From NCBI RefSeq assembly GCF_963921235.1, contig NC_086097.1:58778001-58842000 (forward strand): DNA of 64,000 nucleotides, written 5' to 3'. Below are positions 52,951 through 54,605 of this stretch, one piece after another. The notes under the pieces are model-generated. The model searched no databases and was not told where the DNA came from. It saw nothing but the letters and a program-made list of their open reading frames with translations. The translations under genes were made by a program, and so were the position numbers. Within the stretch, counting starts at the first letter, position 1. Each line of letters starts with the position of its first letter. The DNA is from Mobula hypostoma. Taxonomy: Eukaryota.

Positions 52951-53749
52951 CGGTCGACACAACATTGTGGGCTGATGGGCCTGTACTGTGCTGTACTATT
53001 CTATGTTCTATGTTCTATCCACCGTCTGCTGAGGGCCAGATCAGATGCATTCAAGTCTGGCAAGAAAGAAAGTTACAAGAGGTCCAGGTCTGATCTCTGA
53101 AAAGCTATCTCATGGGTGAACTGGCAATTCTGGAATAAGTTTGTATTAATGAAGGATGCTTGACTGTTGTGACAGGGCTTGAAAGCTATCACCTTTTATA
53201 AAGTAAAATCAAGTGTCAGAGGTCACAACAGGGCTTTGCTTCCAGATCAGTTCAATGTCTTCAATGGTCACTTTGACCATCAAAACATGGAGGAACCCTC
53301 AAGAACTCCCACAACCCTGATGATCCTGTGATTTCAGTCTCTGAGACTGACGTGTGAGCACCCTTCAGGAGGGTGAGCCCACAGAAAGCATCTGGTACAG
53401 ATGGGGTATCCGGTCGAGTACTAAGTACCTGTGCTGATCAGCTGGCTGCTGGAGTATTCACTGAGATCTTTAATCTCTTGCTTTGGCAGTCTGAGGTACC
53501 CACCTATTTCAAGCAGGATTCAATTCTACTGGTGCCAAAGAAGAACGTGGTGACTTGCCTCAATGATTATCATCCAGTAGCACTTACATCCACAGTGATG
53601 AAGAGTTTTGAGAGGATGGTGATGAAACATATCAACTCCTGCCTGAGAGGCAACTTGGATCTGGTCCAATTTGCCTACTGGCACAACAGGTCCACAGTAG
53701 ATGCCACCTCATTAGCTCTTCACTCAATCCTGGAACATGTGGACAGCAA

Positions 53750-54159
53750 TCTTTCTCCGTGGATTGTCACCTTGTCGCGGTGGAGAAGCTTGTGTGGTCC
53801 TGAGATCCCGAGAGCGATGCCGTCTAGAGCTGTGCTCCTGGTAGGGTCACCCATGGCAATAAGGTCGAGGGTGAGGTCCCTGACGAAGAACAATCCAACC
53901 AAGACCTCAGCGGTGGAACAGGCAGACGAAGTTACTTCAAACTCAATGGCTGTGAAGGCGAATGAAGGCTGCAACAAATCCATCAGCTCCAATCGTCGTG
54001 GTTTCCATGCCATTGGAATCAGTTGGTTGATTTGTGAAGTATCGTGTGGTTCTTGGAGTGCAACATCAAGTACAAGTCAAACAAATACACGCACAGGCAT
54101 CTTCGTTCTGTACGGAACGAAGACCATCATCCTTGACCTCGAGGGATAGCCACGACGAC
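53750..54159 (+). mobile_element. 410-bp non-autonomous RTE-type retroposon
   Basis: 9-bp TSD GGACAGCAA (53741-53749 and 54160-54168); RTE-like 5'UTR (caccttgtcgcggtgg..agggtcacccatgg..tgacgaag); (CGA)n tail; CpG-rich; no recognisable ORF. Confidence 0.85.
53752..53896 (+). ncRNA. Putative HDV-like self-cleaving ribozyme
   Basis: P1 TTTCTCC/GGAGAAG; P2 GGATTGTC/GAACAATCC with one bulge; P3 ACC/GGT around L3 TTGTCGC; J4/2 CGAA. Confidence 0.6.
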
Positions 54160-54605
54160 GGACAGCAAAGGTGTATACATCAGGATGTTCATTATTGACT
54201 ACAGCTTGGCATTCACTACTGTTGTACCCTCAAAACTAATCAATAAGCTTCAAGACCTTGGTCTCAATCCTTGATTTCCTCACTTGCAGACCCCCCACTC
54301 AGTTCAGATGGACAAAAACATCTCCTCCACAATCTCCATCAGTACAGGTACACCACAAGGCCAGTGCTCATCGGGGGATCAGAGGTGGAGAGGGCCAGCA
54401 ACTCTAAATTCCACAGTCTTATCATTTCAGAGGACCTGTCATGAACTCATTACATAAGTGCAATTACAAAGAAAGCACAACAGTGCCTCTACTTCCTTAG
54501 GAGTTTGCAAAGATTCAACATGACATCTAAAGCTTTGACAAACTCCTATAGCTGTGTGGTGGGGAGTATACTGATTGGCTGCATCACAGACTGGAATGGA
54601 AATAT

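Follow-up and report, generated by a model that had tools for sequence, protein, structure and literature searches.

A probable ribozyme of HDV-like type at the 5′ end of an RTE-like LINE and its 410-bp deletion derivative in the ray Mobula hypostoma

The window, the whole stretch of 64,000 nucleotides analyzed here, harbors a 410-bp insert at positions 53750–54159 whose first ~145 nt (hereafter, the head) are probably a new addition to the HDV-like ribozymes known from retrotransposons. Matches to longer genomic copies identify the insert as an internal-deletion derivative of a ~3.9-kb RTE-like LINE carrying the same head. The demonstrated part of this reading comprises the relation between LINE and derivative, the 5′ and 3′ modules that they share, the exact 5′ end, the architectural fit of the head and the rarity of such a fit. 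In the family numbering used below, nt 1 corresponds to window position 53752. The features of the insert, with helices as predicted, are the following.

53741–53749, + strand: left target-site duplication (TSD), GGACAGCAA, with the identical 9-mer at 54160–54168 (TSD scan)
53750–53751, + strand: extra TC separating the left TSD from family nt 1, found in the window copy alone
53752–54111, + strand: LINE-5′-derived part, the first ~360 nt of the LINE (matches to copies L064 and L063)
53752–53758, + strand: P1 5′ strand, CUUCUCC in the family majority, with U at nt 1 in the window copy
53759–53760, + strand: J1/2, GU, 2 nt (family nt 8–9)
53761–53768, + strand: P2 5′ strand, GGAUUGUC (family nt 10–17)
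53769–53781, + strand: P3, ACC/GGU (strands 53769–53771 and 53779–53781), enclosing the 7-nt L3 UUGUCGC (53772–53778)
53782–53788, + strand: P1 3′ strand, GGAGAAG, directly after P3′ (family nt 31–37, pairing with nt 1–7)
53789–53790, + strand: P1.1, in which C53789 pairs with G53774 (G23–C38) and U53790 faces U53773 (U22/U39)
53791–53883, + strand: P4 domain, 93 nt, either three hairpins or one closed branched stem with closing pair G53796–C53879
53853–54149, + strand: ATG ORF of 98 codons, with its start codon inside the P4 domain
53884–53887, + strand: J4/2, consisting of the candidate catalytic C at 53884 (family nt 133) followed by GAA here and AAA in the family
53888–53896, + strand: P2 3′ strand, GAACAAUCC, with A53890 bulged (family nt 137–145, A139 bulged)
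54112–54159, + strand: LINE-3′-derived part, the last ~48 nt, consisting of the 3′ UTR and the (ACG)n tail (54152–54159)
54160–54168, + strand: right TSD, identical to the left 9-mer

The 9-bp TSD and the terminal repeat tail reported by the first-pass annotation are confirmed, the former both by direct reading and by a TSD scan, the latter by the sequence ACGACGAC at the 3′ end of the insert. The claimed retention of CpG dinucleotides is likewise real: there are 21 CpG in 410 bp, with an observed/expected ratio of 0.79 versus 0.26 in the flanks. The insert is not strictly non-coding, contrary to the earlier statement that it has no recognizable ORF, for one frame is open over almost the whole element and belongs to an ATG ORF spanning 53598–54149. 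In the window copy, the ATG at 53853 starts an ORF of 98 codons; in 21 of 30 copies, the ORF beginning there has 75 codons. The stop codon of the 75-codon family ORF, TAA, is lost in the window copy, which has C instead of T at 54078.

Contigs from other organisms break away from the window sequence at 54112–54115, and upstream of the break they share a different, consistent sequence. An 18-nt motif taken from this upstream sequence has 1039 matches in the genome, as opposed to 0 and 1 when the motif was reversed as a control. At these sites an ORF ends in a C-terminal C2H2 finger, followed by a stop codon, a ~50-nt 3′ UTR and an (ACG)n tail, and this 3′ UTR is identical to the last ~48 nt of the element. 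The LINE was reconstructed by extending six long copies, two of which (L064 and L063) are full-length. Element nt 3–362 correspond to the 5′ end of the LINE (L064:3009–3366 at 91% identity, L063 at 90%), and nt 363–410 correspond to the 3′ ends of the same two copies. Variants of the deletion junction also occur: three copies (L018, L025 and L029) retain 11 extra bases of the LINE 5′ region, and one (L038) retains the end of the ORF.

A query specific for the LINE 5′ region returned 305 first-look candidates in the genome. In the 20 LINE 5′ regions inspected out of 40 scored places, the head starts at the same C in 13, as it does in L063; two begin at element nt 30, four are truncated further in and one is rearranged.

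The assignment of the LINE to a clade is based on its general build. An RT fragment yields an RVT_1 match with a value of 1.1e-5, below Pfam's cut-off, and also matches the RTs of L1 and R2 in PDB. Over 255 codons, the N-terminal endonuclease region shares 50% identity with its counterpart in a second RTE family of this genome, whose frame matches Exo_endo_phos at 29 bits against a Pfam cut-off of 24.5. Pfam searches with seven decayed LINE pieces gave no match for five of them, and comparison of the LINE endonuclease piece with PDB returned nothing significant. As reportedly described by Malik and Eickbush in 1998, RTE elements possess a single ORF, which codes for an AP-type endonuclease at its N terminus and for an RT, and they end in a very short 3′ UTR with a tail of short tandem repeats. 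The endonuclease, RT, ~50-nt 3′ UTR and (ACG)n tail of our LINE appear to fit the RTE clade as so described, the single ORF being read across frameshifts in a decayed copy. The first-pass annotation had called the insert a promoter-less RTE parasite. It does appear to be non-autonomous and dependent on the RTE-like LINE; however, its head is the LINE's own, and it is not a separate parasite.

The family is abundant and apparently homogeneous among the copies compared. In the window's own 3.48-Gb assembly, 3733 first-look candidates for the element were found, and the 40 that were scored show 91–94% identity over nearly full length. Thirty derivative copies were aligned together with their flanks; the sample leans towards young copies, since they were picked as the best matches to the window copy. 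Within it, the mean divergence from the majority sequence is 3.4% (2.0% outside CpG), and the window copy differs from the majority at 16 of 401 positions.

A C precedes TTCTCC in 28 of the 30 derivative copies, while the window copy reads T-C-T-TTCTCC. TSDs were found in 25 of the 30 copies by the scan and none in the other 5. In 19 of the 25 the TSD adjoins the family C exactly, and in 6, including the window copy, 1–6 extra bases lie in between. Runs with three other organisms gave 123, 100 and 122 contigs that leave the reference just before 53753; their diverging flanks are unrelated to one another (agreement 0.36–0.37), and in each of the three runs the consensus ends in C. A fourth, small run adds 5 contigs diverging just before 53753. 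No homology continuing upstream of P1 was seen in the copies examined. Thus TSDs, LINE starts and contig divergence all place the pile-up of 5′ ends, proposed earlier as a check, at P1 nt 1. The earlier remark that the element starts 2 nt upstream of P1 is true of the window copy, but these 2 nt are junction bases private to it. The genomic 5′ end of the family is P1 nt 1, that is, the predicted cleavage site; this is DNA evidence for the RNA 5′ end and not a proof of cleavage.

For HDV-like ribozymes, the cut is described as falling at nucleotide one of a P1 of ~7 bp, with P1 as the start of the product (PMC4908430), and P3 is described as having 3 bp closing an L3 of ~7–8 nt, in which a U and a G can form the G25–U20 wobble (PMC4836649). 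The head follows the complete order P1-P2-P3-L3-P3′-P1′-P4-J4/2-P2′ with HDV-like spacing. Direct reading finds P1, P2, P3, L3 and the candidate catalytic C where they had first been placed. We compared 48 heads, 30 from derivative copies and 18 from LINE copies or flanks. Majority heads have seven Watson–Crick pairs in P1, eight in P2 and three pairs in P3 (family nt 18–20/28–30, with L3 at nt 21–27), and the J3/1 linker is absent. The candidate catalytic C, whose role is predicted, is invariant in all 48 heads, and the base following it at 53885 shows a nearly fixed G>A change in three other organisms. L3 has U at its first position and G at its sixth, the latter at least 90% conserved in the 48 heads, and its last base (position 7) is U in most copies of the three other organisms. 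Across the 48 heads, 96.4% of 911 cells pair, versus 28–53% when the partners are slid by 1–3 columns, a contrast that is partly built in because the structure was derived from these same sequences.

The deviations from the canonical fold that the first-pass annotation listed fare differently. The U–G first pair is present in the window copy but private to it; the pair is C–G in 42 of 48 heads, and in the family majority P1 begins at nt 1 and pairs perfectly over its 7 bp, which removes this objection. P1.1 does consist of one G–C pair plus a U–U, the G–C being found in 47 of 48 heads. The P2 bulge also stands: it is A53890, two pairs from the P2/P3 junction.

The P4 domain is ambiguous and has no single closing stem. 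Its best predicted fold consists of the three hairpins; the closed form is less stable than this fold by 0.5–0.9 kcal/mol in two majority-like copies and by 3.9 and 2.1 kcal/mol in two others, and would leave four unpaired nucleotides before the catalytic C. In one of the other organisms (organism A), variants at 53803, 53872, 53878 and 53881, presumed to be linked, would break two pairs of the three-hairpin form and none of the closed P4; as their linkage is a presumption, they are given no weight.

The best-surviving alternative, possible but in our opinion unlikely, is chance resemblance: an ordinary structured LINE 5′ UTR with an internal promoter, in which the sharp 5′ end marks the transcription start and there is no ribozyme. 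A sharp 5′ end is indeed common to any LINE family with full-length copies. The rarity of the fold was estimated with a structural descriptor on a background of 258,740 anchors on both strands, comprising the window minus the element and the regions flanking 29 loci. Because the candidate was already known when the descriptor was drawn up, the chance figures are somewhat generous. The descriptor allows one bulge in P2. A version requiring 6 contiguous P2 pairs beside P3 missed the proposed P2 and picked a G-U-rich P2′ instead, which we consider spurious.

The G-U-tolerant descriptor matches 271 background anchors (1.0e-3), and a frequency of 1 in 1000 genomic positions for so permissive a search is a point in favor of chance. 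With the L3/P1.1 core features added, 4 anchors remain (1.5e-5). The Watson–Crick descriptor matches 0 of the 258,740 background anchors. A factorized estimate of its chance frequency gives 2.9e-6 and, with core features, ~8e-8, the latter on a single count; the factorization is taken as valid because it reproduces the G-U-tolerant count (1.09e-3 versus 1.05e-3). Since the descriptor is post hoc and the core figure depends on one count, ~1e-5 is taken as a fair order of magnitude. In the motif search with an HDV descriptor suggested earlier, 27 of 48 heads fit the G-U-tolerant version and 16 the Watson–Crick version, 12 of them also with core features. The window copy fits only the G-U-tolerant tier, with core features. 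In the family, the anchor of the descriptor was fixed independently by the TSDs, and a Watson–Crick fit with no background match (estimate 3e-6) at a position determined beforehand argues against chance. The chance reading would have to accept further coincidences as well, namely all junction spacings, the U and G of L3, the C followed by AAA and the CPEB3-like P1.1. It must also contend with the fact, described in PMC6765202 and PMC3774820, that such ribozymes are well established in RTE elements.

Two null results are on the side of chance. In the 48 heads, covariation is nil: 96.4% of cells pair versus 96.2% in shuffled data (with a value as high in 36 of 500 shuffles), two pairs show changes on both sides versus 0.6 expected (56 of 500 shuffles), and the covariation score is 0.054 versus 0.052 (75 of 500 reach the observed value), the copies being too alike. 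Such an outcome is expected, because the copies lie only ~3.4% from their majority. Rfam returned no match to an HDV family at E up to 10 for the window copy and one majority-like copy. Each Rfam model is specific to its family, and pseudoknots are left unscored. What the null lowers is the likelihood that the head is a member of a described family, not that it works like one. At permissive thresholds, the window copy gave just two matches, to a miRNA (E 2.5) and to a lncRNA (E 4.8), which are attributed to chance; the majority-like copy gave none at such thresholds, and neither did the whole window at gathering thresholds.

The second RTE family of the genome also speaks for chance resemblance, as its 5′ end is sharp and yet lacks the fold. 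This end, UGGGGUGC..., defined by 9 copies, is G-rich and different in sequence. The strict descriptor anchored on the first base of this family fits 0 of the 9 copies, and 2 match only at shifted anchors. With no anchored fit in this family, an HDV-like head is not shown to be general among the RTEs of this genome. The second family was also tried as a source of covariation; a relaxed scan gave many mutually exclusive "HDV-like" solutions, and no support was drawn from it. Another point for the chance reading comes from L1Tc, in which the promoter start falls at the ribozyme site, as described in PMC3185411; owing to the same coincidence, a start site and a ribozyme are not mutually exclusive.

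Another reading, which we consider improbable, is that the head adopts a nested long-range hairpin, formed by P2 and UUGUC/GACAA round the branched domain, and serves translation or protein binding rather than cleavage. For three copies, energy minimization predicts this hairpin, which contains P2. It scores -55.3 kcal/mol versus about -51 for the HDV-like set (P1+P3+P4 -42.9, P2 duplex -8.1), and it buries both L3 and the catalytic C. The AUG of the 75-codon ORF lies inside the domain, which would suit a role in translation of this or the main ORF. By an informal reading, the second family seems to preserve a P2-like helix, with A–U changed to C–G. However, energy models score neither pseudoknots nor tertiary contacts, and the z-score of the fold is unremarkable (-0.94). 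Inactive alternative folds are known for HDV ribozymes, and we count this against the hairpin as the functional structure. The hairpin also leaves unexplained why nt 1–7 pair perfectly with the 7 nt that immediately follow P3′. A pol III SINE of the classical kind, headed by a promoter derived from tRNA, 5S or 7SL RNA, would match the short length, the high copy number (3733 first-look candidates) and the LINE-type tail, but it is hardly credible: ARAGORN detected no tRNA, neither of two copies gave an accepted Rfam match at E up to 10, and the LINE's own 5′ end makes up the first 362 nt, an identity that refutes a free-standing SINE, barring a pol III promoter inside that end.

The preferred HDV-like reading agrees with what is described for related elements. 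RTE, R4 and L1 ribozymes are reported to cleave at the 5′ junction (PMC3774820). RTEs are stated to carry no promoter of their own (PMC6765202), and the ribozyme-bearing RTE elements are thought to be promoter-less and to ride on other transcripts (PMC3774820, PMC6765202). The ray family resembles these RTE ribozymes, as there described, in being an RTE-like LINE with a ribozyme, here a probable one, at its extreme 5′ end and a predicted cut at the first base. It differs in that it occurs in a cartilaginous fish, its sequence is unrelated (the Rfam null) and its P4, predicted only, is a 93-nt branched domain; moreover, the short deletion derivative here vastly outnumbers the LINE.

A shared 5′ ribozyme in an autonomous LINE and its non-autonomous derivative is described for L1TcRz and NARTc (PMC3185411, PMC3383444). 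L1TcRz of Trypanosoma cruzi is active in vitro, with a product starting at C1 and a P1.1 of one Watson–Crick pair (PMC3185411), and both C at +1 and a P1.1 with one Watson–Crick pair recur in the ray head. In contrast, L1Tc belongs to another LINE clade, and its ribozyme is given as 77 nt long and doubling as the Pr77 promoter (PMC3185411). Internally deleted elements that retain the 5′ ribozyme and the 3′ end required by the protein are described for R2 and SIDE (PMC3774820, PMC3414825), much as in the ray derivative. R2 ribozymes are also reported to have frequent P2 mismatches near P3 and a weak or absent P4 (PMC3774820). However, R2 is described as specific for 28S rDNA and cut from the rRNA co-transcript (PMC3774820), whereas the ray family is dispersed, with variable TSDs.

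In its core, the head is reminiscent of CPEB3, for which U20, U21, C22, A23, G25, U26 and G37, U38 are given (PMC4836649). The first U and the penultimate G of the ray L3 occupy the U20 and G25 places of HDV and CPEB3. Both the ray head and CPEB3 have a 7-nt L3 with U at positions 1 and 2 and G at 6 (and, in most copies of the three other organisms, U at 7), and a P1.1 of one G/C pair plus U–U, oriented G–C in the ray and C–G in CPEB3 (PMC4836649). CPEB3 differs, according to the same source, in its G–U wobble first pair, opposed to a Watson–Crick C at +1 here, and in being single-copy and intronic with a short P4. A U21–U38 in P1.1 is reported for a fast-cleaving ribozyme, and a non-Watson–Crick second pair is cited there for CPEB3 ribozymes (PMC13635239); the ray P1.1, with one Watson–Crick pair plus U–U, has the same make-up as that of the fast ribozyme. 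In these systems, all deviations of the ray head (C at +1, a one-pair P1.1, U–U, the P2 mismatch and a poor P4) have precedents.

We hypothesize that a source copy is transcribed, probably within a longer host or read-through transcript, and that the head folds during synthesis, with P1 and P3 complete after 37 nt. Cleavage of the RNA would then fall just 5′ of P1 nt 1, C133 (window 53884) being the presumed catalytic base, and the ribozyme would remain on the released RNA. The LINE protein may recognize the common ~48-nt 3′ end and perform target-primed reverse transcription in trans, which would leave the TSD and the (ACG)n tail.

Insects and trypanosomes provide well-documented cases of LINEs processed by ribozymes. 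To our knowledge, there are few vertebrate examples beyond R2 and the CPEB3 intron. A literature search for HDV-like ribozymes and sharks returned no title on RTE elements, and an earlier vertebrate description may exist. A young family with thousands of candidate copies, comprising a LINE and its 410-bp derivative, would offer a compact natural system. It could be used to address whether promoter-less vertebrate LINEs rely on co-transcription combined with self-cleavage, and how small the 5′ and 3′ modules can be that still permit mobilization in trans. For annotation, an abundant "SINE-like" repeat of rays is hereby recognized as a LINE deletion product.

As a long shot, we speculate that a young, high-copy RTE lineage of cartilaginous fish carries an active CPEB3-type ribozyme, that vertebrate RTEs are a possible stock of CPEB3 and that P4 may act as a cap-independent translation start. 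If so, the single-copy CPEB3 ribozyme of mammals could have been recruited later from vertebrate RTE elements, and the P4 domain, with the AUG of the 75-codon ORF that the 410-bp derivative still has, could also serve as such a start.

The window copy itself is best regarded as a dead product, and three changes, the U at nt 1 and two in P4, should, according to the model, weaken its own head. Its closed P4 lies 4.5 kcal/mol above the best fold, with positions 53858 and 53859 changed there. The site at which 53750–54159 was inserted is an older LINE reverse-transcriptase frame, which the insert interrupts.

The 410-bp derivative at 53750-54159 is not the only internally deleted form of this LINE in the genome. 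Three genomic copies of the derivative (L018, L025 and L029, at about 1860-1880 in each) extend 11 bases further into the LINE 5′ part before the deletion junction, and at one LINE 3′-end locus (L038:1440-1520) the LINE 5′ part is fused to the final ~35 nt of the ORF. Judged from these junction sequences, the deletion derivatives had more than one origin or were formed stepwise.

The head, i.e., the first ~145 nt common to the LINE and the derivative, also occurs with another body. In X1, one small sequencing run from another organism, the head continues to about 53917 and is followed by a different sequence; here the head differs at four linked positions (53803, 53872, 53878 and 53881), and these changes also occur as minor variants in three other organisms (about 1–2% of depth). 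The pattern suggests a modular head that several elements have in common.

The 5′ region of the LINE contains a small open reading frame, which the derivative has retained:

Element nt ~104-331 (derivative copies L002-L030), window counterpart 53853-54149: ORF of 75 codons beginning with ATG

Its AUG lies within the P4 domain of the predicted ribozyme fold. The frame is intact in 21 of 30 derivative copies, about the level expected from neutral decay. In the window copy the stop codon is lost through a C in place of T at 54078, extending the frame to 98 codons.

At its other end, the long ORF of the LINE closes with a C2H2 zinc finger directly followed by the stop codon (full-length copy L064:6780-6845; 3′-end loci L031-L060); the Pfam zf-C2H2 match to this ORF end (2.4e-4) is below the cut-off.

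The insert is surrounded by the reverse-transcriptase frame of an older LINE (53500-53749 and 54160-54400). Contigs from three other organisms join both flanks without the insert, skipping 422–431 bases, and most likely represent paralogous copies of the interrupted older LINE.

A second RTE family in the same genome shares 50% amino-acid identity with the studied LINE in the endonuclease. Its 5′ end is G-rich, UGGGGUGC (L088:707 onward, L087, L089-L096), and its 5′ leader upstream of the conserved block measures about 520 nt, compared with about 365 nt in the studied family. In two of nine copies the first ~9 bases are present twice at the 5′ junction, as a short duplication. Adjoining one copy is a very young repeat (L088:1-682; G000:C1:31329900-31330581), found at 39 other places among those scored, with 98–99% identity over at least 680 bases; all 39 scored matches stop at one common base, the one adjoining the second-family copy.
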